A stretch of DNA of 64,000 nucleotides from Labilithrix sp. (GTDB lineage Bacteria > Myxococcota_A > Polyangia > Polyangiales > Polyangiaceae): contig JAHCIY010000002.1 of the NCBI GenBank assembly GCA_026128965.1, positions 1,640,108 through 1,704,107 on the forward strand, written 5' to 3'. Positions 3,065 to 61,642 of the stretch are shown here, in pieces (position 1 is the first letter of the stretch; every line of letters begins with the position of its first letter). A program made the position numbers and the translations under genes. The notes below the pieces were generated by a model, which worked only from the letters and a program-made list of their open reading frames with translations, was not told where the DNA came from and ran no database searches.

Positions 3065-3946
3065 GTGTTTCGCATCACGGTCGAGGACCGTCGCGGCCCG
3101 CGGACCTTCACCTTCGTGAAGGACGCCGTCACGATCGGGCGCGCGCCGGAGCGTGACCTCGTCCTCGAGATCGACCGCGTCTCGCGGCTTCACGCCGAGG
3201 TCCGCTTCGATCGCGCGCGCGGCGCGGTGCTGCTCGAGGACCGCTCCGCCAACGGGGTGTGGCGCGGGGACGAGCGCGTCGAGGGCCCGTACGTGGTCCG
3301 CCCCGACGACTGGCTCACGATCGGCAGCGTGCGGATCCGCGTCCAGCACGACGACTACGAGCTCGGAGGCGTCGCGGCGCCGGAGGAGCAGGCGTTCCTC
3401 GCCGCGCTCCTCGCCGATCCGCGCGACGACGAGACGCGGCTCGTCTACGCCGACTGGCTCGAGGAGCACGGCAAGACCGCGCACGCCGAGTTCCTCCGCA
3501 CCCAGGTCGCCGCGCGCGGGAAGAGGAAGGACGGTCCCTCCGCCGCGGAAGGCTTCGCGGAGGCGAGCGCGCGGCTCGCGGAGCTCGCGCCGCTCGTCGA
3601 GGTCGCGTGGCGGGCGCGCGTCGCGATGGCGGCGGTCCAGGCGTGCGGCGAGCAAGCGACCGGTCGCCCCGGCCGCGTCGCGTTCGAGCTGGAGTGCACC
3701 CAGCGCTGGGACGACATGGTGCCGACCGAGATCGAAGGGATCCGCCGTTGCACCGCGTGCCGAAAGGACGTCGCGTACGTCACGACGCTCGAGCAGGCGT
3801 ACGGCTGGGCGGAGGAGGGCGGCTGCGTCGCCGTCGACGCCGGGATCTCGCGGACGGCGGCCGGCGTCGACGTCCCCCTCGCGTCCCTCCGCGGTCGCCT
3901 CGCGCCAAACGTCGCGTCTCGCGGCACGAAGCGCCTCTCGTTCTGA
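3065..3946 (+). CDS. FHA-domain protein fused to a TIGR02996-type repeat-companion domain
   Basis: N-terminal FHA signature (TIGRAPERDLVLEIDRVSRLHAEV...ANGVWRGDERV). LVYADWLEEHG...AEFLR is the hallmark of the TIGR02996 domain. GTG start. Confidence 0.75.
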   Translation: MFRITVEDRRGPRTFTFVKDAVTIGRAPERDLVLEIDRVSRLHAEVRFDRARGAVLLEDRSANGVWRGDERVEGPYVVRPDDWLTIGSVRIRVQHDDYELGGVAAPEEQAFLAALLADPRDDETRLVYADWLEEHGKTAHAEFLRTQVAARGKRKDGPSAAEGFAEASARLAELAPLVEVAWRARVAMAAVQACGEQATGRPGRVAFELECTQRWDDMVPTEIEGIRRCTACRKDVAYVTTLEQAYGWAEEGGCVAVDAGISRTAAGVDVPLASLRGRLAPNVASRGTKRLSF

Positions 3947-4149
3947 GCGCCTCTCGTTCTGAGCGGCACGCGCGCTGCAGCTCCACGTCGCGTGGCCGAT
4001 CGAGCGCGCGCGGCTCGACTCGTTCGTCCGCTACCGGCGCTGTCGGCCATGTGGCTTCTCTCCTTATGGCGCGCTCGGCGCGCACCGTTCAGCTCGGCCT
4101 CCGTCACTCCGTGCATCGACGCGGGAGTGATGTGTAGGCGCTGCGAGGC

Positions 4150-5193
4150 TCATGCCGCGGCGCGGGTCCAGCGCGTGCGGCTCTGGAGGAGCTCGATGAT
4201 CTCCGCCTCCGATTTCTCGGCGCCGTCGAGCTTCACGTAGCGGCGCGCGAGCCAGTCGTAGCGCTTCAGCATCAGGAACATCCACACGATGAAGAAGTCG
4301 ATGCCGTCGAAGACGACCGCGCCTTCCTTCGCGTAGGTCGCGAGGTTCTTCGTGAAGTCCTCCGGCATCTCGGTCCAGTGCCGGGTCTGCTTCACGTGGT
4401 GTCCGATGTGATAGCCGTCGTTGAAGCAGCGCCGGTTGTAGCCCGTGTTGATGCAGGTGATGCTGTTCCGATAACAGTTCTCCGGCGCGGCTTCGTCGAC
4501 GAACGCGTGCTGCCCCCAGTTCCCGCACATCATGAGGAACCGCGTCGAGACGTAGGGGACGACGAGCACGGCGACGACGGCGCGCCAGTCCGTGAAGTAT
4601 GCGAGCGCGCCGGTGACGGCGAAGAACAAGAGCTCGCCGGCGAGGCTCTTCACCACGAGCGAGCGCCGGTTCTTCCGCAGGAAGTAGCGGGGGAGCTCGA
4701 CGATGACGCCGAAGAAGAAGCGGAGGAAGTAGCGAACGAAGCCGCGGACGGAGTCGCGGCGGTAGGGGAGGGTCGAGCTGAGGTCCTCCTCCATGTTGTT
4801 CTCGGGGTGGTGCATCCCGACGTGATGGGCGAAGTACGTGTCCGGCGTCTCGCCGAAGAAGGGCCCGAGGAACCACGGGATGAAGTGGTTCAGGCGCTCC
4901 CACTTCTTCTTGAAGAGCTTCCGGTGGCTCGTGTTGTGGAGCATCAGGATGTACGGCCCGAGGAACCAGAACACGAGGACGAGGTGCACCGCCGCGTGCC
5001 ACCAGCGGAAGCCGCTCACGATCATGAAGACGCCGCTCGGCACGACCGTCAGCAGGAGCGTCGCGATCAGCTTGAGGAACGGCGTGTCCCGTACGTCGTT
5101 GATGAAGACGAGAGAGGCGCGGTGGAACGCGTTCGGCTCGCTCGTGGTCCAGGTCGGATCGGTGAGGCTGACCTGCTGCATCGGGTGCGGCAA
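4150..5193 (-). CDS. membrane fatty-acid desaturase family protein
   Basis: Three His boxes (HNTSHRKLF, HHVGMHH, HIGHH) and multiple transmembrane segments. Confidence 0.85.
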   Translation of the reverse strand: MPHPMQQVSLTDPTWTTSEPNAFHRASLVFINDVRDTPFLKLIATLLLTVVPSGVFMIVSGFRWWHAAVHLVLVFWFLGPYILMLHNTSHRKLFKKKWERLNHFIPWFLGPFFGETPDTYFAHHVGMHHPENNMEEDLSSTLPYRRDSVRGFVRYFLRFFFGVIVELPRYFLRKNRRSLVVKSLAGELLFFAVTGALAYFTDWRAVVAVLVVPYVSTRFLMMCGNWGQHAFVDEAAPENCYRNSITCINTGYNRRCFNDGYHIGHHVKQTRHWTEMPEDFTKNLATYAKEGAVVFDGIDFFIVWMFLMLKRYDWLARRYVKLDGAEKSEAEIIELLQSRTRWTRAAA

Positions 5194-5259
5194 CCTAGCA
5201 CGCCAGCCCGGCGGTTCGAAGGAGAAGACGCGCCCCGAGAGCCGCGACTCACGAGCGGG

Positions 5260-5691
5260 CTACTTGACGAGGAGCTGCGCGACCGCGGCGACGTAGAGCG
5301 AGAAGCCGGCGATGAAGAGGGCGGTCGCGGCGCGGAGGAACCGCGACTTGTGGTTCCGGATCTGGATCGCGGTGCGGAGCGTCTCGAGCACGTCGTCGCG
5401 CAGCATCTGGGTCAGCCACTTCAGCCGCAGCACACCCCACATCGCGCACGCGGCGGCGGCGAGCACCAAGGTCAGGCCGCTCGCGATGCAGCCGCGCGCG
5501 AGCGCGCCCGTGTCGGCGATCGCGCGGCCGGAGAAGCCGGTGACGGTGATGACGATGCCGCTCAGCGAGAGCATCACCTGCGTGCGGAGCACGAGCACCG
5601 CGAGCTGCGCCTCGACCTTCTCGAAGGCCTTCAGCTTGTCACCGTCGCAGAGCGCGAGGATCGCGCGCGCTTCGTCGTTCTCGTCGCTCAT
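5260..5691 (-). CDS. hypothetical integral membrane protein
   Basis: 143 aa with 3-4 hydrophobic helices. High GC3. Lies between selO and the desaturase gene on the same strand. Confidence 0.5.
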   Translation of the reverse strand: MSDENDEARAILALCDGDKLKAFEKVEAQLAVLVLRTQVMLSLSGIVITVTGFSGRAIADTGALARGCIASGLTLVLAAAACAMWGVLRLKWLTQMLRDDVLETLRTAIQIRNHKSRFLRAATALFIAGFSLYVAAVAQLLVK

Positions 5692-5697
5692 CGAGGG

Positions 5698-7143
5698 TCA
5701 GGTCCCACAGAAAGTGCGGTAGTCGTGCTGCTCGGGGCCGGGCGGCTCCGCCAAGTCGGCGTTCTCGGGTTGATCGTCATGAGGTCGCGCGAGGACCGCG
5801 TTCAGGCGCTCGAACGGCGCGTAGTTGCCATTGTTCGCGGCGGCGATCATCTCCTCGATACGGTGGTTGCGCGGAATGAAAGCGGGATTCGCGCGCCGCA
5901 TCGATTCGGCGCGCGCGGAGGGAGAGACATCCTCCTTCGCGGTGCGCCGCCGCCACGCCTCGGCCCAGTCGTGGAACGCGCCGGGATTGGCAAATAGCTT
6001 CGCGGCGGCGTCGGCGTCCTCGCCGAGGCGCCGGAAAAATAGCGTGAAGTCGACCTCGTTCGTGGCCATTCGCTCGAAGAGGTCGTTCGCGAGCGCGCGG
6101 TCGCCGTCCTCTTCGGTGTGGAGGCCGAGCTTCGCGCGGAGCACGCGCGCGTACGCGGCGTCGAACGCGTCGGCGAAGCGGTTCAGCTCGCCGGTCGCGA
6201 GGTGGACCTGCTCCTCTTCGCTCTCGGCGAGGAGCGGGAGCAGCGTCTCGGCGAGGCGCGCGAGGTTCCACTGCATGATCTTGGGCTGCACCGCGAAGTG
6301 GTAGCGGCCGCCGCGGTCGATCGAGCTGAACTTGCGGCGCGGGTGGTAGATGTCGAGGAACGCGCACGGGCCGTAGTCGATCGTCTCGCCCGAGATCGAC
6401 GTGTTGTCGGTGTTCATCACGCCGTGGATGAAGCCGACGCCGAGCCAGCGCGCGACGAGGTGGGCCTGCGCGTCGATCACCTGCTGGAGGAGGACGAGCG
6501 CGGGCGGCGCGTCGCCGGCGGCCGCGAGCGCGGCGGGGTAGTGGCGCGCGAGCGCATAGGAGACGAGCGCCGCGATCGCCTCGCCGTCCTCGCGCGCGGC
6601 GAAGTACTCGAAGGTGCCGACGCGGAGGTGGCTCGCGGCGACGCGGGTGAGCACGGCGCCCTGGAGGAGCTCTTCGCGCGCGACGGGCTCGCCCGTCGTC
6701 ACCGCGGCGAGCGCGCGCGTGGTGGGGACTCCGAGCGCGTGCATCGCCTCGCTGACGACGTACTCGCGGAGCACGGGGCCGAGCGCGGCGCGTCCGTCGC
6801 CGCCGCGCGAGAACGGCGTGCGGCCCGCGCCCTTGAGCTGGACGTCGCGCCGCCTGCCGTCCTTGCCGACGACCTCGCCGAGCAAGATCGCGCGGCCGTC
6901 GCCGAGCTGGGGCACGAAGTTGCCGAACTGGTGACCCGCGTACGCGAGCGCGATCGGGTCGGCGCCCTCGGGCACGCGGTTGCCGGAGAGCGTCTCCGCG
7001 TCGAGCTCGTCCGCGGGGACGCCGAGCTCCTCCGCGAGCGCGCGGTTCACCTCGATGAGCGCGGGCGCGCGGACGCGGGCGGGCGCGACCTTGGCGAAGA
7101 AGCGCGCCGGCAGCCGCGCGTACGAGTTGTCGAAGGCGATCAT
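5698..7143 (-). CDS. selO: protein adenylyltransferase SelO (YdiU/UPF0061 family)
   Basis: 481 aa. ...HQFGNFVPQLGDGRAILLGE...GAGRTPFSRGGDGRA...GVMNTDNTSISGETIDYGPCAF... is characteristic of SelO. Confidence 0.9.
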   Translation of the reverse strand: MIAFDNSYARLPARFFAKVAPARVRAPALIEVNRALAEELGVPADELDAETLSGNRVPEGADPIALAYAGHQFGNFVPQLGDGRAILLGEVVGKDGRRRDVQLKGAGRTPFSRGGDGRAALGPVLREYVVSEAMHALGVPTTRALAAVTTGEPVAREELLQGAVLTRVAASHLRVGTFEYFAAREDGEAIAALVSYALARHYPAALAAAGDAPPALVLLQQVIDAQAHLVARWLGVGFIHGVMNTDNTSISGETIDYGPCAFLDIYHPRRKFSSIDRGGRYHFAVQPKIMQWNLARLAETLLPLLAESEEEQVHLATGELNRFADAFDAAYARVLRAKLGLHTEEDGDRALANDLFERMATNEVDFTLFFRRLGEDADAAAKLFANPGAFHDWAEAWRRRTAKEDVSPSARAESMRRANPAFIPRNHRIEEMIAAANNGNYAPFERLNAVLARPHDDQPENADLAEPPGPEQHDYRTFCGT

Positions 7144-7155
7144 GCGCGTGGCAGC

Positions 7156-8745
7156 TTAGCGCGCGGCGCGGTCTTTGAAGGCCGGCGGACGATCGGCGTC
7201 GGCGACCCTACGGCCGACCTCGAAGAGGAGCGCTACGTCCTCCGCCGCGCCGGCGAGGTCCCAGTCGTCGTGGATCACGTCGTCCGGCTGGTGGTACATG
7301 CGCGCGACGTATTCGGCGCGTTTCTTCGCGCCGAAGTCGGGCGGCTTACCGATCCACTCCGCGCCGGGGTGCAAGAAGGAGAGCGCGGGGACGCCCGTCT
7401 TCACGAGCTCGTAGTGGTCGGAGCGGAAGTAGTAGCCCTTCTCCGGCTCGGGATCGGGGACGACGCGCCGGCCTTGCTTCGCGGCCTCTTCGCGGAGCGG
7501 CTCATCCATCGTCGTCTCGCCGTCGCCGACGCTGACGATCGCGCGCGTTTTGCCCCACGGGTTCATGATGTCCATGTTGATGTCGGCGACGACGCGGTCG
7601 TGCGGCTGCGACGCGTAGTGCTTCGAGCCGAGCAGCCCTTGCTCCTCGGCGGTGAACGCGGCGAAGACGATCGAGCGGCGCGGTGCGCGCGGGAGCTCAC
7701 GGTAGAGGCGCGCCGTCTCGAGGAGCCACGCGACGCCGGAGGCGTTGTCGAGCGCGCCGTGGAACACGCCCTCCGCGCTCTTGCCGAAGTGATCCCAGTG
7801 CGCGCTGTACATGACGTGCTCGTCGCGGAGGCGCGGATCGGAGCCGGGGAGCTTCGCGACGACGTTGCGCGACACGAGCTCGCGCGCGGTGAGGCGCACC
7901 TCGAGGTCGGCGCGCGCGGCGCGGATCGGCGCGGGGCGGAACGCGCGATCGAGGGCGGAGGCCTTCGCGCGATCGAAGTCCTCGAAGAGCTCTCGCGCGC
8001 GACTCTCGTGGATCCAGCCTTCGATCGGCACGTGCGCGGCGCGCGCTTCGGCGGTCGCGATCTCGTAGCGCTCGTGCGTGGCGCCGCCGGCGACGACGTT
8101 CCAGCCGTACCCGGCGGGGCCGGTCTCGTGCACGATGAGCGCGGCGGCGGCGCCCTTCTTCGCCGCGATCTCGTACTTGTAGCGCCAGCGGCCGTAGTAG
8201 GTCATCGCGCGTCCGCGGAAGGTCGCGTCGTCGAGGCGGGTCGGGTCCTTCGGATCGGGGACGGGCGGATCGCCGACGAGGAACACCGCCGTCTTGCCGC
8301 GGAGGTCGACGTCCTTGAAGTCGTCCCACGCATGCTCGGGCGCGACGACGCCGTAGCCGACGAACACGAGCTCCGAGCGCTCGAGGTGGACGTCCGGGCT
8401 CGTGCCGTACGACCACGCGACGAAGTCCTCGCCGCTCCGCCACGCCTTGCCGTCGATCGCGAGGGACGCCCGCGACCCGATCGCGACGAGCGGCACCGGC
8501 TGCACCTCCGGCGCGAGGCGCAGCTTCCGCAGCTCGTCCTGGAGATACGCGATCGTGAGCTCCTCGCCCCGCGTCCCCGGCGCGCGGCCTTCGAAGCGAT
8601 CGGAGGAGAGGACCCGCACGTGCTCGACGAGGCGCGGCGCGATCGCGACCCACGGCGGCGCCGCCGCGGCGGGCGCGCGGGGCGGCGCGCTGCACGCGAC
8701 CGCGGCGGCGAGGAGGAACCAGAGAGTAGAGCGTCGACGCGGCAT
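7156..8745 (-). CDS. M28-family aminopeptidase with PA domain, secreted
   Basis: HWDHFG...GALDNASGVAWLLE and EEQGLLGS metal-binding motifs. Signal peptide MPRRRSTLWFLLAAAVACS. Start chosen at ATG 8745 rather than the upstream ATG 8772. Confidence 0.8.
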   Translation of the reverse strand: MPRRRSTLWFLLAAAVACSAPPRAPAAAAPPWVAIAPRLVEHVRVLSSDRFEGRAPGTRGEELTIAYLQDELRKLRLAPEVQPVPLVAIGSRASLAIDGKAWRSGEDFVAWSYGTSPDVHLERSELVFVGYGVVAPEHAWDDFKDVDLRGKTAVFLVGDPPVPDPKDPTRLDDATFRGRAMTYYGRWRYKYEIAAKKGAAAALIVHETGPAGYGWNVVAGGATHERYEIATAEARAAHVPIEGWIHESRARELFEDFDRAKASALDRAFRPAPIRAARADLEVRLTARELVSRNVVAKLPGSDPRLRDEHVMYSAHWDHFGKSAEGVFHGALDNASGVAWLLETARLYRELPRAPRRSIVFAAFTAEEQGLLGSKHYASQPHDRVVADINMDIMNPWGKTRAIVSVGDGETTMDEPLREEAAKQGRRVVPDPEPEKGYYFRSDHYELVKTGVPALSFLHPGAEWIGKPPDFGAKKRAEYVARMYHQPDDVIHDDWDLAGAAEDVALLFEVGRRVADADRPPAFKDRAAR

Positions 8746-12185: not shown

Positions 12186-12344
12186 GAAGGGGTCTCCTAC
12201 ATGTAGTATGCCTGGCTGCGGGCCAGTGTTTACGAGGGTTTAGGCAAGGCACGCCCATCCTCATGGGGAACGCGTTCGAGGGCCCGCGGCACCACACGAT
12301 CGATCGGATCAGGACGGTGGTACGAACTGGCGCCGCCGCGAGGG

Positions 12345-12977
12345 ATGGAGGACGTACGGTCCGTCGAGTACCGCGCGCTCCGCGAGACCGACACGAAGGC
12401 ACTTGCGAAGTACACGCAACTCGTCGAGCTCACGCTGCGTGGGGCGCCGGGCCGGCTCACCGACGCGAGCGGTCTCGCCGCGTTGAAGGGCCTCCGCGAG
12501 CTGACGATCGCGGAGCTGTACGAGCTCGACGCGAAGCGCTGGCCCACGAGCTGGCGGTTCGACGGGCTCACGATCCGCGGGCTGAACAAGGCCGACGCCG
12601 CGGCGCTCGCGAAGTCGCAGGAGGGCGCCGGCGCGCTCGCGATCCGCGGGGCGAAGAGCGACGCGTGGATCGCCGAAAACCTCGGCAATCCGTTCCGCCA
12701 CTGGGAAGACGACGAGCCCGCGTTCGGCCGCGCGGCGATGGCGGCGTGGAAGAAGGCCAACGCCGCCGCGAGGAAGCTCGGCGCGAAGGCGGCGAAGCCG
12801 AAGGCGAAGGTGGTGCTCGACGACCTCGTGAAGGCGCTCAATCGCGTCGACGCGAAGCACGCCATCGACACGCTCCGTCGCGACGAAGCGGCCGACGCGT
12901 ACTTCGCGCTCGCTCGCGGGATGGCCGTCGCTGCCGCCGACGCCGAGCGCTGGCTCGACGACCTCCGCGAGTGGTGA
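12345..12977 (+). CDS. hypothetical protein
   Basis: 210 aa with a diverse composition (K/E/W-containing). GC3 is much higher than in the antisense 213-aa ORF. Confidence 0.5.
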   Translation: MEDVRSVEYRALRETDTKALAKYTQLVELTLRGAPGRLTDASGLAALKGLRELTIAELYELDAKRWPTSWRFDGLTIRGLNKADAAALAKSQEGAGALAIRGAKSDAWIAENLGNPFRHWEDDEPAFGRAAMAAWKKANAAARKLGAKAAKPKAKVVLDDLVKALNRVDAKHAIDTLRRDEAADAYFALARGMAVAAADAERWLDDLREW

Positions 12978-13018
12978 GTCAGGTCGCGACGGACGAGCGC
13001 GCTCGCCGGCGCGGCGGG

Positions 13019-15299
13019 TCAGTAGTCGTACGGGCTCGTCGGCTTCGCGTCGGGGTCGGCGACGGAGACCTCCTTCACGTCGGCGCCGAGGTTCGGGAGC
13101 GCGTTGGCTTTGATGCGCGTGTCGCTGACGCTGTAGACCCAGTCGTCCATCACGATGCTGCGCTTCACTTCGCTCTTCGCGTTGCTCCACCAGTTCGAGC
13201 AGGCGGAGTCGTAGTAGCCCCAGGTGTTGACGCTGCCGTACTGCTGCTCGTCGACGGCGCTCGGGTGCGCGACCTTGCCGCGGAGCTTGAAGCCGCCCTG
13301 CGCGGTGACGTCGTAGACCATGAGGCCGCTGAACGTCATCTGCGTGCCGTAGCCGCCGTTCGTGTCGCCGCCCTCGCAGACCGTCATCGGCAGCGCGAGG
13401 AGGTTCTTCGGCGCGAAGTAGGTGAAGGCGAGGTGGTTCGTGAGCGCCTCCGAGCTCGAGCCGCGCGTGCCGATGACCTCCTTGTGCGTGAGCCTCGGAT
13501 CGGTCGGGTTCGACACGTCGAAGATCTGGAGGAGCACGCCGGTGAAGTAGGCGAAGTCGCCGTGGTCCGCCGCGTCGTACCCGATCGTGAGGAGGTGGGT
13601 CGGGTCCATCATGTGGATGTAGGTCGAGAACCCCGGGATCTTCAGCTCGCCGAGCGTCTTCGGCGCGCGCGGATCGGCGAGGTCGAAGACGAAGAGGGGG
13701 TCGGTCTTCTTGAACGTGACGATGTAGCCGCGGTCGCCGTCGAAGCGCACGGAGCGGATGTCCTCCGACGGCGCGACGTTATCGATTTTGCCGGTCTCGA
13801 CGAGCTCGCCGTTCTTCGTCTCGAGGATCGAGATCGTATTGTGCGCGTTGGGGGAGGGGAGGTGGCCCGTCGTCGTCGCGACGCGGAGGAAGCCCTTGTC
13901 CTCGTCCATCGCGAGCTGGTTCAGGACGCGGCCCTTCACGAAGCCCGACCCGACGTACGAGGTGGCGCGCGCGTCCGCGCCGACGGCGAACTTGTGGATG
14001 GTGGAGAGCTCCTTCTCGGAGCGGCCTTCGTACCAGCCCCAGCCGGAGATCTGCTGGTGCGGCACGGCCATGTAGAGCGCCTCCGACGACGCGTAGACCC
14101 AGCCGGGGCGGCTGATGACCGACGCGATCGAGAGCTTGTCCGCCGTCGTCATGTCGACGGAGAGCACGCTCGTCAGCGCCGTGCCGTCGGGCATGCTCGA
14201 CGTGTAGAGGCCCGTCTCGATCGGCGCGCCCGCGCTGTCGCTCCAGCTCGGGAGGAGCTGGCCCTCGATCTTCTGCGCGTCGATCTCGCGGAGGCGCTGG
14301 TCGAGGGCGCGGCCGTACGCGGCGTTGACCGCGGCCTCGGTCGCGTCCTCGGGCAGGTCGACGTAGACGTACGTGCCGGCGCCCGAGAACGGGGACGGCT
14401 GCCCGAGGACGGTGTGGATCGCCTTGCCGACCCGACGCGCGGCGATGAGCGAGCTCGACGAGTGGATGCTCCGCACGAGCCGCGGCGCGGAGAGGGTGGA
14501 GATGTCGAAGATCGATATTTCGGTCTCGGTGCCGTCGCCGGACGGGACGCAGCCGTCGTAGCCGTACGTGCACTCGCCGCCGCTCCCGCCGTACGGGTCG
14601 TAGCCGCCGCTCTGGCGCGGGATGGACGAGTAGATGACGGCGCGCGTGCCTTCGACGAAGAGCTTCTTCGCCGTCCCGGGCACCGTCACGTCGGCGATCT
14701 GGTGCATGTTCGAGCCGGGGAAGGCGTCGACGATGCGGAAGTGCGAGCCGTTGACGACGTAAATATACTTGTTGTCGTTTTTGACGAAGTCGGCCTCGTC
14801 GACGCCGGCGACTTGGTTGTTGGTGCCCGACGCCTGCTTCGCGCTCTCGGCCGCCGGCGGAGCGGACCCTCTGGCCGGCGCGCCGGAGGTCGACGACGAG
14901 AAGGCTCCGGCGTCCGCCGACCAGCCGTCGCCCGTCGCCCGTCGCCCAGCGCTCCGGGTCCGGCTTCAGCGAAGCGCAGCGCACCGTCGCGATCCGAGCG
15001 ACGCGGTCGCGCTCGACGCTGACGCGCACGGAGCCCTTGAGGTTCTCGCGCATCGCGTTCGCGACGGTGGTCGTGTCGGTCGCGATGAGATGCGCGCCGA
15101 ACGGGCCCTTGGGGTCCTCGCCGCTCGCGCCGTTGCTCGCCGACTGACCGAGCCGTGTCCGCTCGTCGTCGAGGCAGCGCTGGTAGTCCGCCTGGGCTTC
15201 TTCGAAGGTGGATGGGCCTCGGGACTCTCCGCCGGCGCAGCCGATGTAGAACGCGGCGAGGGAGACGGGGACGGCGAGCAGGGTAGGGAAGCGACGCAT
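13019..15299 (-). pseudogene. beta-propeller-domain (PF09826-like) lipoprotein gene interrupted by a +1 frameshift inside a triplicated 7-nt repeat
   Basis: The 5' part (15299 down to about 14940) encodes MRRFPTLLAVPVSLAAFYIGCAGG...ERWATGDG. The 3' part (frame of ORF 13019..14707, open up to 14968) encodes GDGWSADAGAF...GTNNQVAGVDEADFVKNDNKYIYVVNGSHFRIVDAF..., the typical start of the beta-propeller domain. Deleting one copy of GTCGCCC (14927-14947) fuses both parts into one reading frame of about 757 aa. Confidence 0.7.
14926..14947. repeat. (CGTCGCC)x3 heptanucleotide tandem repeat inside the beta-propeller lipoprotein gene
   Basis: Seen directly. A copy-number change of one unit shifts the reading frame by 1. 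Confidence 0.8.
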
Positions 15300-15399
15300 G
15301 ATGGTCCGTCTTCCGCAAGGGCGGTGCCACCTCGCGGTGCCTACAATTGCCGGCGATCGCGCGCTCGCGGCTGTGCCAATCCGTGCCGCGCCGGACTCG

Positions 15400-17205
15400 G
15401 TGATCTATCGTGCGGGCGTGCTCCGTCTCATCGGCTTCGCGGTCCTCGTGGTCTCGTTCACCGTGTTCCTCCCGCCCGACGCGAAGGCGTGCGGGATGTT
15501 CACGCGGCCTTCGGCCGAGAGCACGGAGGACACGCTCAAGACGCCGTACCTGAGCGTCGAGCGCACGCTCCTCGTCTGGGATCGAGAGACGAAGGAGGAG
15601 GACTTCGTGCGCGAGGCTCGCTTCGAGCGCGCCGCGCAGGGCTTCGGCTTCGTCGTCCCCACGCCGACGAAGCCCGAGGTCTTCGCGGTGAAGGATCCGC
15701 CGTTCGACCGGCTGCAGCAGCGGATGCCCTACGTCCCCTACAAGGCCCCGCCGCCGATGAAACACGTGCCGGGCCTCGGGGGAGGGGGCGCGTCGGCGGC
15801 CAAGCCGGACGCCGAGCCGGTGGAGGTCCTCGCGCAGCAGAAGATCGGGAGCTTCACCGCGTTCACGCTCCAGGCCTCGGAGGCGGGGGCGTTCGACGAG
15901 TGGCTCGGCGACAACGGCTTCGTGATCCCGACGGAGGCGCGCTCCTGGCTCGAGCACTACGTCAGGCTGAAGTTCTTCTTCGTCGCGTTCAAGTACGACG
16001 CGCCCGCCTCCGCGACGAAGAGCATGACGAGCGAGACGGTGCGGATCCGCTTCAAGACGCCGAAGCCGTACTACCCGTACATGGACGCGACGCATCCGAA
16101 GGGGATGGACCTCCTTCGCCCGCGCACGCTCCTCGGGTGGACGATCACGCGCGATCGGATGATCGACGTCGCGCGCTGCACGAAGGACGCGGGGCCGGGG
16201 AAGGCCGTCGGATGGCGCCGGCCGTGGTCGTACAGCTGGCAACCCGAGGTCACGCCGGAGGACGTCGCCCTCGCGCTGGGCCCCGACCTCGCCGCGATCG
16301 TGCCGCGCGCGCCGAAGCTCTGGGTGCAGCCGTTCCGCGATTTGAAGTCGTCGCGAGAAGGATACGGCGACGTCGTCCTCGTGAACCTGTTCAACGACGA
16401 GACGTTCACGCGCGCGGACGAGGACGCGCATCGCGTGCTCCTCGGCGTGCTCGATCCCGCGCTCGCCGGCGGTGAGGGCGACGTGCTCCAGAGGATGAAG
16501 TACACGCGGCGGCAGCTCGACGAGGCGGCCGACGAAGAGCAGAAGAAACGCTCCGCCTCGTGCGCGACCGCGCCCGGAGCCGCGGGCGGCGGCGGATGGG
16601 TCTTCGCGCTCGCGGCGATCGCGCTCCTTCGTCGGCGCGGGTTCGTCCTCGCGCTCGGGCTGCTCGGATGCCGGCGCACCGAGGCGACCGACGCTGGAGC
16701 TCCGGCGGCGTCGTCCGCCGCCGAGCCCTTCGACGCGGAGGCGCTGATGCGTCCGTACACGACGGCCGAACGTGAAGAGAGGGTGTTCGACGTCTTGCGG
16801 GGGAAGGATCCGGGCTACGTGCTCGAGGATCCCGACGCGCGTCCCACGCCGACGGTGGACCTCTCGTTCGAGGCGAAGCCGGGCGGCTTCGTTCCTCCGG
16901 ACTCCGGCGCTCGCGACCTCACGCGCGATCGCGCCCTTCGACGTTGTTATCTCGACGCGCGGAGGTCGGCTCCAACCCTCGACGTGGCGACGGTGGTGTT
17001 GCACCTCGTCGTCGACGCCGAGGGCTACATCTCGACCGCGGACGGCGTGAGCGCCGACGCCGGAGCAGTCGACCTTCCGAGCTGCGTCCTCCGTAGCGTC
17101 CGCCAGCGGAGGCAGGTCGTCGAGATCGCGCGCGAGACCAACGTGACGCTCCAGATCACGTTCCGCGCGGGCCCTCCCGACGAAGATGGATCCACGCGGG
17201 AGTAG
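15400..17205 (+). CDS. secreted protein with a C-terminal AgmX/PglI-like (TonB-C-like) domain; N-terminal part possibly DUF2330-like
   Basis: Signal peptide VLRLIGFAVLVVSFTVFLPPDAKAC. Internal hydrophobic GWVFALAAIALLRRRG. C-terminal ...RRCYLDARRSAP...VVLHLVVDAEGYIS...PSCVLRSVRQ...VTLQITF resembles the AgmX/PglI C-terminal domain. An in-frame ATG at 16747 with a GGAGG 5 nt upstream could mark a separate downstream product. Start is uncertain (ATG 15298 overlaps the divergent gene; GTG 15400 or 15418 preferred). Confidence 0.55.
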   Translation: MIYRAGVLRLIGFAVLVVSFTVFLPPDAKACGMFTRPSAESTEDTLKTPYLSVERTLLVWDRETKEEDFVREARFERAAQGFGFVVPTPTKPEVFAVKDPPFDRLQQRMPYVPYKAPPPMKHVPGLGGGGASAAKPDAEPVEVLAQQKIGSFTAFTLQASEAGAFDEWLGDNGFVIPTEARSWLEHYVRLKFFFVAFKYDAPASATKSMTSETVRIRFKTPKPYYPYMDATHPKGMDLLRPRTLLGWTITRDRMIDVARCTKDAGPGKAVGWRRPWSYSWQPEVTPEDVALALGPDLAAIVPRAPKLWVQPFRDLKSSREGYGDVVLVNLFNDETFTRADEDAHRVLLGVLDPALAGGEGDVLQRMKYTRRQLDEAADEEQKKRSASCATAPGAAGGGGWVFALAAIALLRRRGFVLALGLLGCRRTEATDAGAPAASSAAEPFDAEALMRPYTTAEREERVFDVLRGKDPGYVLEDPDARPTPTVDLSFEAKPGGFVPPDSGARDLTRDRALRRCYLDARRSAPTLDVATVVLHLVVDAEGYISTADGVSADAGAVDLPSCVLRSVRQRRQVVEIARETNVTLQITFRAGPPDEDGSTRE

Positions 17206-25050: not shown

Positions 25051-26928
25051 CTAGGAGGTGGCGAGCGCGAGCGGTACGTCGGGATCGATGAGGTAGCCTT
25101 CGTCGCGCGTGACGAGCGCGTCGGAGAGGCCGAGCGCGCGGAGACGGCGGATCGTCGTGTAGACGCGCAGCGTGGCCGCCTCGTGCTGCATCTTCTCGCC
25201 GGGCCAGCCCGCCTCGATCATGTCGAGGGTGGAGATGGCGGCGCCGGGGCGCTCCGTCCGCGCGACGGCGAGCGCCCACAAGACGCGGCGCACGGGGCCG
25301 TGACGCGCGAGGTCGTGCACCTCGCCCGACGGCAGGGTGAGGTTCCGTCCGTCGTGCCCGACCACGATCGGCCGCGCGGCGGTGCTCGCCTCGCTCGCCT
25401 CGACGATCGCGCGCACGACGGTGGAGGCCGGCATCCGCGACACCATCGCGGCGGCGCGTGCTTCGAGGAGCCGCTTCCGTTCGGCCTCGGCGTCGCCGCG
25501 CGCGCGCGCCGCGATCGCGAGCCGGGCGAGGGCGAGCGCCTCACGCCAGCGCTGCCCGCTCGCGCGGAACTCGGCGACCTGCGCCCCGAGCCGGACGCTG
25601 TCGGCGGCGTCGTCGCGCGCGTCGGGCAAGAGCTCCATCATCCCGCGGACCGCTCCTTCGCGCGGCGCGTCGCGCATGACGACGTGGATCGCGACCGCCT
25701 CTTCCAGGAGCGCGCGCGCGGCGTCGGGCTCGCCGCCGAGGAGCGCGTGGATCCCGAGCCCCGCCGCGGCGTCGGCCTGACCGCGCGGATCGTCGGCCGT
25801 GAGGCGGCGGGCCTCTTCGAACGCCGCGCGGGCGGCGTCGAAGTCGGTGAGCGCGAGCGCCGCCCAGCCCGCCCCGCGCAGCGCCTCGGCGCCGAGCACG
25901 TCCGACGTCGCGAGCGCCATCGCCTCCGCGACGAGCGCCTTCGCGGCGGCGGGCTCTCCGCGCTCGAGCATCGCGCGCCCCGCGACGAGCCGCGCGCGCA
26001 GGCTCTCAACGTCGGGGGCGTTGCCCCCGCCACCCCCACCCCAGACACGGTCAACGTCGGGGGCGTTGCCCCCGCCACCCCCACCCCAGACACGGCCCGC
26101 CGGAGACGGCGGGTCGCTGCGCGACCGCTGGTGCGGCCGCTTCTGGGGCCCCGGTGGCGCGATCGTGTCGTCGTCGGCGGTCATGGTGTTGGCGGTGAGG
26201 GCGTCGGCGACTTCGATGGCGCGGGTGAAGGCGGGGGCGTCGAAGGGGAGGGCGTCGGCGAAGAAGAGGGCGTCGGAGGCGGCGTTCCAGAGCGTGAGGC
26301 CGCGGGCGCGTGTCTCGGGCGCGTCGGCGAAGAGCGCGCGCGTCGCGAGCGGGATGGCGGCGGCGAGCTCGGCCAGCGTCGCGCGTGAACGAGGGCCGTA
26401 GCTCGCGGGCCGGAGCTCGATCGCGCGCCGGATCCACGCGTCGAGCCATCGGTCTGCTGCGTCCGGGGCAGGCGTACGGCTCGCGTCGACGTGATGGAAC
26501 GCGCGGACCGAGTAGGGGACGGCGAGCGTGACGACGCCAGCGCGTGTCGTGCGGGTGACGAGGCGCGCGCCTTCGAGCCGGCAGATGCTCTCGATCGACG
26601 TGTCGGGCGCGACGGACTCGAGCACGTCCCACGCGAAGGGCGCGTCGCACGCGGCGAGGGTGGAGAGGAGGGCGGCGTCTTCGGGCGAGAGCGCGGCGAT
26701 CGCGTCGTCGACCTCGTCGCGCCACGGCAAGCGCGCGTCGGGCAGCGTCCATCCGACGAGGCGGGGGCGGAGCGGGCCCCAGCCGATCGTGCGCGCGAGG
26801 CCGCCGGCCCACGTGAGCACCGCGCGCTCGCGGCCGAGGAGCGCGGCGACGTCGGCGAGGTCCCCCTCGTCGCCCGACTCGGCCGCGAGGATGCGGACCG
26901 CCTCGGCTTCGTCGACCGCCTCGAGCAT
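25051..26928 (-). CDS. TPR-rich regulator with a C-terminal OmpR/PhoB-type winged-helix DNA-binding domain (reverse arrangement of an AfsR/SARP-like protein; no P-loop)
   Basis: Central Ala-rich TPR-like helices. C-terminal ...VLWALAVARTERPGAAISTLDMIEAGWPGE...LRVYTTIRRLRALGL...GYLID fits the trans_reg_C pattern. Contains an exact 15-aa tandem duplication RVWGGGGGGNAPDVD. Confidence 0.6.
   Translation of the reverse strand: MLEAVDEAEAVRILAAESGDEGDLADVAALLGRERAVLTWAGGLARTIGWGPLRPRLVGWTLPDARLPWRDEVDDAIAALSPEDAALLSTLAACDAPFAWDVLESVAPDTSIESICRLEGARLVTRTTRAGVVTLAVPYSVRAFHHVDASRTPAPDAADRWLDAWIRRAIELRPASYGPRSRATLAELAAAIPLATRALFADAPETRARGLTLWNAASDALFFADALPFDAPAFTRAIEVADALTANTMTADDDTIAPPGPQKRPHQRSRSDPPSPAGRVWGGGGGGNAPDVDRVWGGGGGGNAPDVESLRARLVAGRAMLERGEPAAAKALVAEAMALATSDVLGAEALRGAGWAALALTDFDAARAAFEEARRLTADDPRGQADAAAGLGIHALLGGEPDAARALLEEAVAIHVVMRDAPREGAVRGMMELLPDARDDAADSVRLGAQVAEFRASGQRWREALALARLAIAARARGDAEAERKRLLEARAAAMVSRMPASTVVRAIVEASEASTAARPIVVGHDGRNLTLPSGEVHDLARHGPVRRVLWALAVARTERPGAAISTLDMIEAGWPGEKMQHEAATLRVYTTIRRLRALGLSDALVTRDEGYLIDPDVPLALATS
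26005..26094. repeat. perfect 45-bp tandem duplication (2 copies) inside the TPR/winged-helix gene
   Basis: Seen directly. Each unit contains the hairpin-capable GGGGGCGTTGCCCCC and encodes RVWGGGGGGNAPDVD. Confidence 0.8.
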
Positions 26929-33642: not shown

Positions 33643-34320
33643 ATGCCGTCGCCGCGCCTCTCCTTCTTCCTCTCCGCCCTCGCCGCGTGCGCGAGCGATC
33701 CGCCGCCGCCCGCCGTCGTGGTCCCGCCGTCGAACGCCCCCGCCCCCGCGCCCGCACCATCGCCCGCACCATCACCGTCAACGCCGCCGCCCGCACCCGC
33801 ACCCGAGCCGACGGCCGAGCCGCGCGCGCTGCCGTGCCCGCACGGCGATCCGCTCTGCACGCCGCCGTCGCCGGGAGGTTTCGTCGACTCGTCGAGCGGA
33901 GCCGCGCCTTCATCGTCGTCGTCGTCGCTCGACCCCGGCATCCCCGGCACCGGCTCGGGCGGCCCCGTTCCATCGAACACGAAGGCGCCCACGCTTCGCC
34001 ACGGCGCGGTCACGGTCACGGGCCGGCTTCCGCCGGAGGTCATCCAGCGCATCGTGCGCCAGAACTTCGGGCGCTTCCGTCTCTGCTACGAGAACGGGCT
34101 CCGCTCGAACCCCAACCTCGCCGGGCGCATCGCGGTGAAGCTCACGATCGACGGGAGCGGAGCGGTGACGAACCCGACGATCGATCCGGTGACCGACCTC
34201 CCCGACAAGGCGGTCCAGTCGTGCGTGCTGCGCGGCTTCGCCAACCTCAGCTTTCCGCAGCCGGAGGGCGGCGTCGTGGTGGTGGTCTACCCGGTGATTT
34301 TCGCTCCGCCCGCGCCCTAG
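33643..34320 (+). CDS. AgmX/PglI C-terminal-domain lipoprotein with a Pro/Ala-rich linker
   Basis: MPSPRLSFFLSALAAC lipobox. C-terminal GRLPPEVIQRIVRQNFGRFRLCYENGLRSNPNLAGRIAVKLTIDGSGAV...VQSCVLRGFANLSFPQPEGGVVVVVYPVIF is a close match to the myxobacterial AgmX/PglI (TonB-C-like) domain. Confidence 0.7.
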   Translation: MPSPRLSFFLSALAACASDPPPPAVVVPPSNAPAPAPAPSPAPSPSTPPPAPAPEPTAEPRALPCPHGDPLCTPPSPGGFVDSSSGAAPSSSSSSLDPGIPGTGSGGPVPSNTKAPTLRHGAVTVTGRLPPEVIQRIVRQNFGRFRLCYENGLRSNPNLAGRIAVKLTIDGSGAVTNPTIDPVTDLPDKAVQSCVLRGFANLSFPQPEGGVVVVVYPVIFAPPAP

Positions 34321-36574: not shown

Positions 36575-36634
36575 TCGTTCAGGCGCGGGAGCCCCGCTCC
36601 ATCTCGAGGTACGCGGCGCGGCGCGGTAGAGCGC

Positions 36635-44042: not shown

Positions 44043-44356
44043 CGCGAGTTGGCGAGGCGCGCGAGCGGGACGCTCCCGACGACGTTGCGGATGCGCTGCG
44101 CCTGCGGCGCCGGCACGTCACCGCGCAGCTGCACCTCGGCGCGCCCAGACGAGCGGACGATGCGCACGCGGAGCCGCGCGATCTTCGGCGTGCGCGCGAC
44201 GTCGCGGAGATCGGCGAGGATCGGCGGAGCGACCCCGCCGCGAACGACGCGCACCGCCCCGTCCTCGATCGCGAGCTCACACACCGTGATCGCCCGCGTC
44301 GCGGCAACGTAGAGCGCGCCGAGCACCCCAGCGACAACCGCGACCCACACGAGCAT
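44039..44356 (-). CDS. small membrane protein (DUF3634-like)
   Basis: MLVWVAVVAGVLGALYVAATRAI...VRVVRGGVAPPILADLRDV... 105 aa with one N-terminal transmembrane segment. Confidence 0.5.
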   Translation of the reverse strand: MLVWVAVVAGVLGALYVAATRAITVCELAIEDGAVRVVRGGVAPPILADLRDVARTPKIARLRVRIVRSSGRAEVQLRGDVPAPQAQRIRNVVGSVPLARLANSR

Positions 44357-44413
44357 GTCCACCCATGCAGCATAGCGCCCGGCGACGCGGCGCGGCGCGG
44401 ACGCACGCCGACC

Positions 44414-44544
44414 GCGCAAGGTTTCGGCCCGCGGTGGAAGGCACGAGGGACGCGCGCAGGTTTGGGGTTGGGCTCGCGGTGGGAGGTACGAGGGCCGCGC
44501 GCAGGTTTGGGTTCGGGCTCGCAGTTGAAGGTGCACAGGGCCGC
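44414..44544. repeat. three tandem degenerate copies of an about 43-nt unit (GCGCAGGTTTGGG.TGGGCTCGC.GT.G.AGGT.C.AGGGCCGC) in an intergenic region
   Basis: Seen directly between the minus-strand genes 44599..45489 and 44039..44356. Confidence 0.6.
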
Positions 44545-60824: not shown

Positions 60825-61642
60825 GCCGCAACCGATCGTGCACGGCGTTGCTCGTCCTGGTCTCGTTCTCCGGGATCGCGTCGTTCTCCGGGATCGCGAG
60901 CGCGGAGAGCAACAAGGCGCGATGCAAGGCCTCGTATGAAGGTGCGCAGCGGACGAAGCGCGACGGCGACATCGTCGCCGCGCGCGCCGACCTCGAGACC
61001 TGTCTCGAGACGTGCCCGGCCGCGCTGACGAAGGACTGCAAGGCCTGGCTCCACGAGATCGACGCGCTCATGCCGACGGTGCGTTTCAGCTTGCGCGATC
61101 GACGAGGTCGTCCCGTCATCGACGCGAGCGTCGTGATGGATGGAACGAAGATCGCGGCGGTCGTCCCCGCCGAGGCGATGACGCTCGAGCCGGGCGATCA
61201 CGTCTTTCGTTTCGAGCGAGGCGACTCCACCTCGGAGGAGGTGCGGCTGACGCTGAAGCCGGCGGAGCATGATCGTCTCGTCGCCGCGTTGATCGATCTG
61301 CCCGCGCCGCCGCCGGCGCGGCCGCCGGTGGAGCGGCCCAGTCGGACGCCTTCGCTCGCGCTCGGCGCGGCGGGGATCGGGCTCCTCGCGACCGCGGGCG
61401 TGCTCACGACGATGGGGCATCTGCAGCGCGCGGACCTGCGCGACACCTGCGCGCCGTCGTGCGCCGCTTCGGACGTCACGACGATCAAGACGCTCTGGTG
61501 GACGTCCGGCGTCCTCGCCGGCGCCGGCGTCGTCTCCATGGCACTCGCCGCCTTCCTCTGGCCGTCCTTCTCCGCCGCGCGCGCGCAAGCGGTCCTCGTG
61601 CCGCTGCCCGGTGGCCTCGCCGTCCAGGCGAGGTTGCCTTGA
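60821..61642 (+). CDS. secreted protein with a C-terminal membrane anchor, hypothetical
   Basis: GTG start overlapping the activator gene stop. Signal peptide containing an 18-nt direct repeat (FSGIAS x2). C-terminal transmembrane segments. Confidence 0.55.
   Translation: MSRNRSCTALLVLVSFSGIASFSGIASAESNKARCKASYEGAQRTKRDGDIVAARADLETCLETCPAALTKDCKAWLHEIDALMPTVRFSLRDRRGRPVIDASVVMDGTKIAAVVPAEAMTLEPGDHVFRFERGDSTSEEVRLTLKPAEHDRLVAALIDLPAPPPARPPVERPSRTPSLALGAAGIGLLATAGVLTTMGHLQRADLRDTCAPSCAASDVTTIKTLWWTSGVLAGAGVVSMALAAFLWPSFSAARAQAVLVPLPGGLAVQARLP

Follow-up and report, generated by a model that had tools for sequence, protein, structure and literature searches.

Loss of frame at a three-copy heptamer repeat in a PF09826 beta-propeller lipoprotein gene of Labilithrix sp.

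The window analysed here is a stretch of 64,000 nucleotides of Labilithrix sp. (assembly GCA_026128965.1, contig JAHCIY010000002.1, positions 1,640,108 to 1,704,107), and positions given below without a contig name are counted from its first letter. On its minus strand, between 15299 and 13019, lies a gene for a lipoprotein of the beta-propeller family PF09826 whose reading frame is lost at a perfect threefold repeat of the heptamer GGGCGAC. An earlier note on this DNA had singled out the locus, and we describe here the gene, the repeat and the explanations that can be given for its present state.

The reading frame is lost at a heptamer repeat

On the plus strand, positions 14927-14947 read GTCGCCCGTCGCCCGTCGCCC, that is (GTCGCCC)x3, and Tandem Repeats Finder reports the array at 14925-14947 with a period of 7, 3.3 copies and 100% matches. 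The minus-strand open reading frame (ORF) opens with the ATG at 15299, starts MRRFPTLLAVPVSLAAFYIGCAGG and enters the repeat as ...KPDPERWATGDG (also given as ...ERWATGDG). Beyond the repeat the same ORF continues as an arginine-rich off-frame reading up to the stop at 13781-13779, which ends a product of 506 residues in total, while the +1 frame is open from 14965, just past a TGA codon, to its own stop at 13021-13019 (Table 1). Removal of a single heptamer unit fuses the two frames into one ORF of 757 residues, with WATGDG joined directly to WSADAG, which bears out the claim that two units would give an intact protein. When the number of units was modelled from 0 to 6, two units gave the 757-aa protein and five units a protein of 764 aa; all other counts led to early termination or to an out-of-frame run. 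The frame is therefore open with 2, 5 or 8 units and not with the three that are present.

The position of the frame change can be delimited from composition and from homology. The phase of third-position GC (GC3) moves from frame 0 to frame +1 between ~14960 and ~14900. In an alignment with 22 full-length homologs, homology in the upstream frame extends to ...RCxSLKPxP (KPDPE/GDG), including a shared DG, and homology in the downstream frame begins at the Ser/Gly/Ala-rich linker AGAFSSSTSG and is strong from SGTNNQVAGVDEADFVKND. Taken together, these homology limits and the GC3 switch place the frame change within ~14951-14915, an interval of ~37 nt of which the repeat (14947-14925) takes up most. 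The repeat thus sits where the earlier note had put it, at the point of frame loss.

Table 1. Features of the interrupted gene, in window positions
Feature	Position	Strand	Description
5' part of gene, original frame	14948-15299	-	ATG 15299-15297, signal peptide, lipobox Cys21 (codon 15239-15237), N-terminal helical hairpin domain
TGA in downstream frame	14966-14968	-	upstream limit for location of the frame change
Heptamer tract	14927-14947	-	GGGCGAC x3, perfect, then partial GG at 14925-14926; +1 frameshift site; codons 118-124
3' part of gene, +1 frame	13019-14926	-	rest of disordered Ser/Gly/Ala-rich linker and complete PF09826 beta-propeller; stop 13021-13019
First possible start, downstream frame	14705-14707	-	ATG 14707, 258 nt into the open frame, past the invariant SGTNNQVAGVDEADFVKND (also SGTNNQVAGVDEADF) motif; ORF 13019-14707, 562 aa
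Stop of frameshifted reading	13779-13781	-	present allele of 122 native and 384 off-frame residues, 506 aa (ORF 13779-15299)

At the 71% G+C of the window, very long spurious ORFs overlap real genes on the opposite strand or in another frame. One of 919 aa (12263-15022, plus strand) is antisense to the beta-propeller gene, and another of 772 aa occupies 14686-17004 on the minus strand; at this composition ORF length alone carries no meaning.

Predicted product of the repaired gene

The repaired protein, that is the 757-aa product of the two-unit gene, matches Pfam PF09826 (Beta_propel) over residues 155-734 with an E value of 8.3e-128 and a score of 427.8 bits (cut-off 22.4), which confirms that the propeller starts just downstream of the repeat. 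This match spans profile positions 2-494 of 495, the full length of the family, and lies wholly in the downstream frame. A database search with the repaired protein returned 900 relatives, the best at 74% identity. The listed ones have lengths mostly of 700-776 aa and align over 94-99% of the query, and several, which come from Labilithrix and from further Myxococcota, bear the name 'putative lipoprotein' or 'beta-propeller domain-containing protein'. In a scan of a species-representative collection we found 27 relatives, the best at 61% identity. Each of the 22 aligned homologs is one single ORF of 710-776 aa that spans both halves without a frameshift, and the order of signal, N-terminal domain, linker and propeller is the same in the repaired protein as in these full-length relatives.

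The lipoprotein start that had been read at 15299 is supported by a signal peptide and by a lipobox, MRRFPTLLAVPVSLAAFYIGC, whose Cys21 is invariant in 23 sequences. The homologs show [LV][AV]GC-type boxes; the tyrosine at lipobox position -3 of the present protein is atypical. Other residues of the N-terminal part that are invariant across the 23 sequences are Y39, C42, R84 and C108, and a GPF motif is conserved. An AlphaFold model with a mean predicted local distance difference test score (pLDDT) of 71 contains helices at 32-58 and 76-107, which form an N-terminal helical hairpin (32-107), then a disordered linker (116-163, pLDDT <50) that includes the residues encoded by the repeat, and after it the beta-propeller, with pLDDT mostly 70-90. 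To judge from its sequence, the gene product is a predicted secreted lipoprotein in which a disordered linker connects a small N-terminal domain of helices to a PF09826 beta-propeller.

The N-terminal ~100 residues (window 14948-15299; residues 1-117) lie outside every Pfam model. The modelled helical hairpin, with its invariant C42 and C108 and its GPF motif, may represent an undescribed small domain. No NCBIfam model matches the repaired protein, no solved structure is related to it by sequence, and Foldseek returned generic propellers only, such as DDB1 at a template modelling score of ~0.3; a search of the literature on PF09826 turned up nothing usable. The linker contains the arginine codon AGA (14866-14868, minus strand, in ...GAPARGS...), a codon that is absent among the 368 arginine codons of 11 verified window genes.

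The gene is surrounded by ordinary chromosomal genes, namely a divergent DUF2330 gene and genes for a chagasin-type inhibitor, an M28 peptidase and SelO. A scan for promoters and terminators found nothing above shuffle expectation.

The downstream part is preserved and has no start of its own

The first ATG of the downstream frame, at 14707, comes after the invariant start of the conserved domain, so that the second half has neither a start codon of its own nor a signal peptide. The 258-nt leader that precedes this ATG has a GC3 of 0.90, and when all coding ORFs of the window were scanned for long start-less leaders of coding-type composition, only this gene was found to have one. The frame is thus interrupted relative to the intact homologs and the downstream part has no separate start, as expected of a frameshifted pseudogene. 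The earlier note had allowed for the case that the two halves have unrelated homologs; both match the same full-length proteins. For this reason, and because the second half lacks start codon and signal peptide, an arrangement of two separate genes was rejected.

The coding sequence shows no decay. Of 202 columns without variation among the 22 homologs the repaired protein retains 201, the sole exception being a change of V to I, and of 101 nearly invariant columns it retains 95; intact relatives miss 0-6 in the same leave-one-out test, and the repaired protein is equally good. Over the 1.9 kb of the downstream part there is no second stop or shift, and GC3 is 0.97. Such a lack of decay means that the lesion is very recent, or not real, or reversible.

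A full-length protein might conceivably be made from the three-unit allele by programmed +1 ribosomal frameshifting. The extra unit forms GGG CGA C in the incoming frame, where a ribosome with GGG in its P site would stall at the rare codon CGA (12 of the 368 arginine codons, or 3.3%, in the 11 window genes) and slip onto GGC, reading on in the open frame as ...WATGDGDGWSADAG... to give a protein of 759 aa. However, this motif owes its existence to the extra repeat unit, and the site is not conserved, all 22 aligned homologs being uninterrupted. Direct reading of the sequence reveals no Shine-Dalgarno-like stimulator upstream, and in the zero frame no stop codon lies near enough to pause ribosomes. 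We regard programmed frameshifting as very improbable.

The repeat among other repeats and in related loci

The repeat is rare. Allowing two mismatches, the 21-mer occurs at one site in the window and at none in 100 shuffles. Perfect repeats with a unit of at least 7 bases that is not a multiple of three, in at least three copies, were observed once, whereas 200 first-order Markov simulations of the 64-kb window gave 0.02 on average. With such an expectation and a target of ~37 nt, the chance that the repeat and the frame change coincide is ~1e-5. This figure bears on a further candidate that we rejected, in which the three-unit repeat is ancestral and an unrelated deletion of 1 nt occurred close to it. 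That candidate is less parsimonious since it requires a coincidence of ~1e-5; moreover, the downstream frame immediately past the repeat already agrees in composition with the linkers of homologs.

The only other three-copy arrays in the window whose unit is not a multiple of three are two (CGCGG)x3 arrays, at 36612-36626 and 44386-44400, both in non-coding stretches without coding signal. Two-unit heptamers, on the other hand, are ordinary: the window has four more of them, about one per 13-16 kb is expected by chance, and two homologs (L002 and L004) carry two-unit heptamers elsewhere in their sequence. An ancestor with two units is therefore plausible.

The unit length, which is not a multiple of three, and the place of the tract within the 5' portion of a gene for a predicted surface protein are those of a phase-variable contingency locus, in which the heptamer tract would act as a slipped-strand switch that is ON at 2, 5 or 8 units and was sampled in an OFF population. 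The modelled disorder of the linker, whose length varies among homologs, suggests that 2 and 5 units would both be tolerated, and the perfect preservation of the downstream frame is what a switch would show. In addition, three units is the permissive threshold for detecting heptanucleotide repeats in Haemophilus (PMC2651432), and neuO provides a precedent for a heptamer switch (PMC13001214). Yet the tract has three units only, whereas working heptamer switches usually carry many more (PMC13001214), and it is neither long enough to be hypermutable nor maintained in the related loci compared. Comparison with related loci, which the earlier note had suggested, argues in the same direction: the closest homolog (P0001, 74% identity) reads ...PREYYGSQDGGAPTYASS... 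at the repeat site and has no heptamer there, and none of 8 related myxobacterial loci has, anywhere in the gene, a repeat of at least three units whose unit length is not a multiple of three. No further repeat of this kind lies in coding sequence of the window, and the rate at which two-unit heptamers arise by chance also weakens the case for a switch. We consider a contingency locus improbable on this evidence.

A search of the metagenome collection with the exact flanks and 1-5 units gave no match and no same-species sequence. A query with the N-terminal 248 aa for fragments spanning the junction gave no match above 56% identity over a meaningful length.

Other tandem repeats occur in the window. 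A perfect 45-nt duplication of 2.0 copies at 26006-26095, inside a 625-aa gene (25051-26928, minus strand), doubles 15 residues in frame, RVWGGGGGGNAPDV(D/E), and looks like another very recent tandem duplication that is tolerated because it is in frame. At 3930-3965 a perfect 16-nt repeat of 2.2 copies, AGCGCCTCTCGTTCTG, lies across the stop of an FHA-domain gene (3065-3946, plus strand), whose protein is identical with one or two units because each unit holds the TGA. A repeat with a 45-nt period at 44426-44531 (2.4 copies, 85% matches) has no coding signal and shares the gap at ~44355-44535 with one of the pentamer arrays. Short perfect tandem duplications with a period divisible by three are found at 60863-60898 (18 nt x2) and at 33749-33773 (12 nt x2.1). 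The occurrence of several perfect tandem duplications in the window points to recent tandem duplication as a trait of this DNA.

Public records and the quality of the assembly

Contig JAHBWE010000017.1 of GCA_019637155.1, a metagenome-assembled genome (MAG) of Labilithrix sp., is identical to 57,721 window bases without a mismatch, and the heptamer repeat corresponds to its positions 216294-216314 (window 14947-14927). Eleven window proteins are identical to proteins labelled 'MAG: Labilithrix sp.' (KIT84_ locus tags), each under two accessions, of the series MBX32321xx and MCW58131xx (the latter being the second NCBI record); they occur on two contigs, of which the longer measures 2.5 Mb. The gene list of JAHBWE010000017.1 has no gene between a 210-aa gene and the DUF2330 gene. 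The protein accessions of the flanking genes are consecutive in both NCBI records (MBX3232210/209 and MCW5813153/154), which implies that neither annotates a product for the beta-propeller lipoprotein gene. An exact look-up of the 506-aa, 562-aa, 757-aa (two-unit) and 764-aa (five-unit) products in a collection of 15 billion proteins found all of them absent. The gene thus has no protein product in public annotation, as would be the case for a pseudogene. This also counts against a switch, given that both NCBI records are in a state other than ON and that no ON product is on record.

These records also bear on the possibility of an assembly or consensus error, according to which the gene is intact in the organism, with two units, and the third arose in assembly or polishing of the MAG. 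The origin of the sequence from a MAG and the lack of decay, with 201 of 202 invariant positions retained, are consistent with such an error, as is the finding that some long-read assemblies of relatives contain many split genes. In contrast, errors typical of the sequencing platforms are indels of 1-2 bases in homopolymers, and no platform typically adds a whole 7-base unit to give an array of three. The second NCBI record of the same population likewise has no product here.

The surroundings of the gene speak against an error as well. Between KIT84_19150 and KIT84_19315 the locus tags advance by 33 steps and the protein accessions by 32. Scans of the window for transfer RNA genes and with Rfam gave no match, and the one surplus locus tag, in the absence of an RNA gene, identifies the beta-propeller gene as the single non-protein locus in this range. 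No other frameshift is visible in the window (~58 genes), where this is the sole detectable frame disruption. A single non-protein locus and the lack of any other start-less leader indicate that the assembly is not error-rich. We therefore judge an assembly error to be unlikely, if less so than a switch.

One relative illustrates what an error-rich assembly looks like. In a 95-kb metagenome contig (L034, ENA contig_5691), the homolog at 3333-5524 is broken into pieces of 218 and 507 aa, and the adjoining PepQ_N / Peptidase_M24 gene at 6046-7368 is split too. These splits look like the product of an error-rich long-read assembly rather than biology.

Discussion

The repeat and the frame break are best accounted for by a recent slipped-strand duplication of 7 bp, from two to three units, in the linker-coding DNA, which would have left this PF09826 lipoprotein gene with a young null allele. 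We hold this explanation to be probable, though well short of certain. Recent inactivation is favoured because the gene shows no decay, because its second half has no independent start and because no product is annotated in either of the two NCBI records. The earlier note had left the choice between a sequencing or assembly error, a recent pseudogene and a slipped-strand switch undecided; of the three, the pseudogene fits best and the on/off switch is the least supported.

The course of events can be pictured as follows. The ancestral linker-coding DNA would have held two adjoining copies of GGGCGAC, a direct repeat of an ordinary sort that had arisen by chance. At replication, backward slippage of the nascent strand by one unit may then have added a third copy. 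The 7 extra bases would then impose a +1 shift after codon 122, with 384 off-frame residues and no propeller. The downstream part, with no start codon ahead of the conserved domain and no signal peptide, would not be separately expressible. The allele would accordingly be null, a very young pseudogene, which the sampled Labilithrix population carries as its consensus state. Loss of a unit by the same slippage might occur at a low rate, and there is no sign of selection for a switch. We infer that the three units of the assembly are also those of the cells.

Four points weigh against recent inactivation. The closest genome stands at 74% protein identity, so that a two-unit ancestor is not seen directly. 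The three-unit state is that of a consensus sequence. The agreement of the second record depends on the numbering of accessions and on a missing intact product. Finally, the total absence of decay would fit an error in assembly, or a locus that is actively switching, equally well.

If recent inactivation is the right explanation, the event is of a known kind, an ordinary mutation by which a gene is inactivated through a short tandem duplication. Its significance is limited as it stands, and public annotation already assigns the gene no product. It does offer a clean and well-localised case in which the disordered linker of a PF09826 lipoprotein, a class abundant in myxobacteria, can acquire an out-of-frame repeat.

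The consequences would be different if copy number proved to be mixed. That the tract is a working switch of the surface lipoprotein, on at 2 or 5 units and off at 3 or 4 in a free-living predatory myxobacterial population, seems to us a long shot. Should it hold, this would be phase variation of a surface protein in a large-genome environmental predator, a lifestyle with hardly any known switches, and switching could, for example, evade phage or predators that use the lipoprotein as a receptor. It would also be, to our knowledge, the first simple-sequence contingency locus described in Myxococcota.

Comparison with known systems

The locus can be set beside two established cases of heptanucleotide repeats. 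In neuO of E. coli K1, carried by prophage CUS-3, phase variation proceeds through a tract of the heptanucleotide AAGACTC in the 5' coding region (PMC13001214). This tract has 3-53 units with a mode of 20, varies between and within strains, and is ON if the count is divisible by three (PMC13001214). Like neuO, the gene described here has a 7-base unit in its 5' coding part, would yield a full-length protein at every third copy number and has a product predicted to reside at the cell surface. Unlike neuO, it has three units, no observed variation and a tract that is not conserved in homologs, and its ON counts are 2, 5 and 8.

In Haemophilus influenzae, heptanucleotide repeats are found in the promoters of hmw1A and hmw2A, and an intragenic (AATTTTG)14 is present in strain PittAA (PMC2651432). 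The hmw tracts comprise 13-38 units, and three units served that study only as a permissive threshold for detection (PMC2651432). Common to both systems is the link of heptamers to surface-protein genes, and the intragenic Haemophilus tract coincides with a frameshift. The settings differ: Haemophilus is host-adapted and its small genome contains many contingency loci, whereas the present tract has three units and belongs to a 71% G+C environmental myxobacterium.

The closest parallel is with slipped-strand frameshifts of the Streisinger type, in which one unit is gained in a short perfect array, the frame is lost there and the rest remains intact. There is no difference in kind between such events and the present one, which is seen in the consensus sequence of a MAG. 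With the PF09826 secreted proteins of Labilithrix-like Myxococcota, finally, the repaired protein shares a full-length family match and an end-to-end alignment, and the present gene differs from theirs by its interrupted frame.

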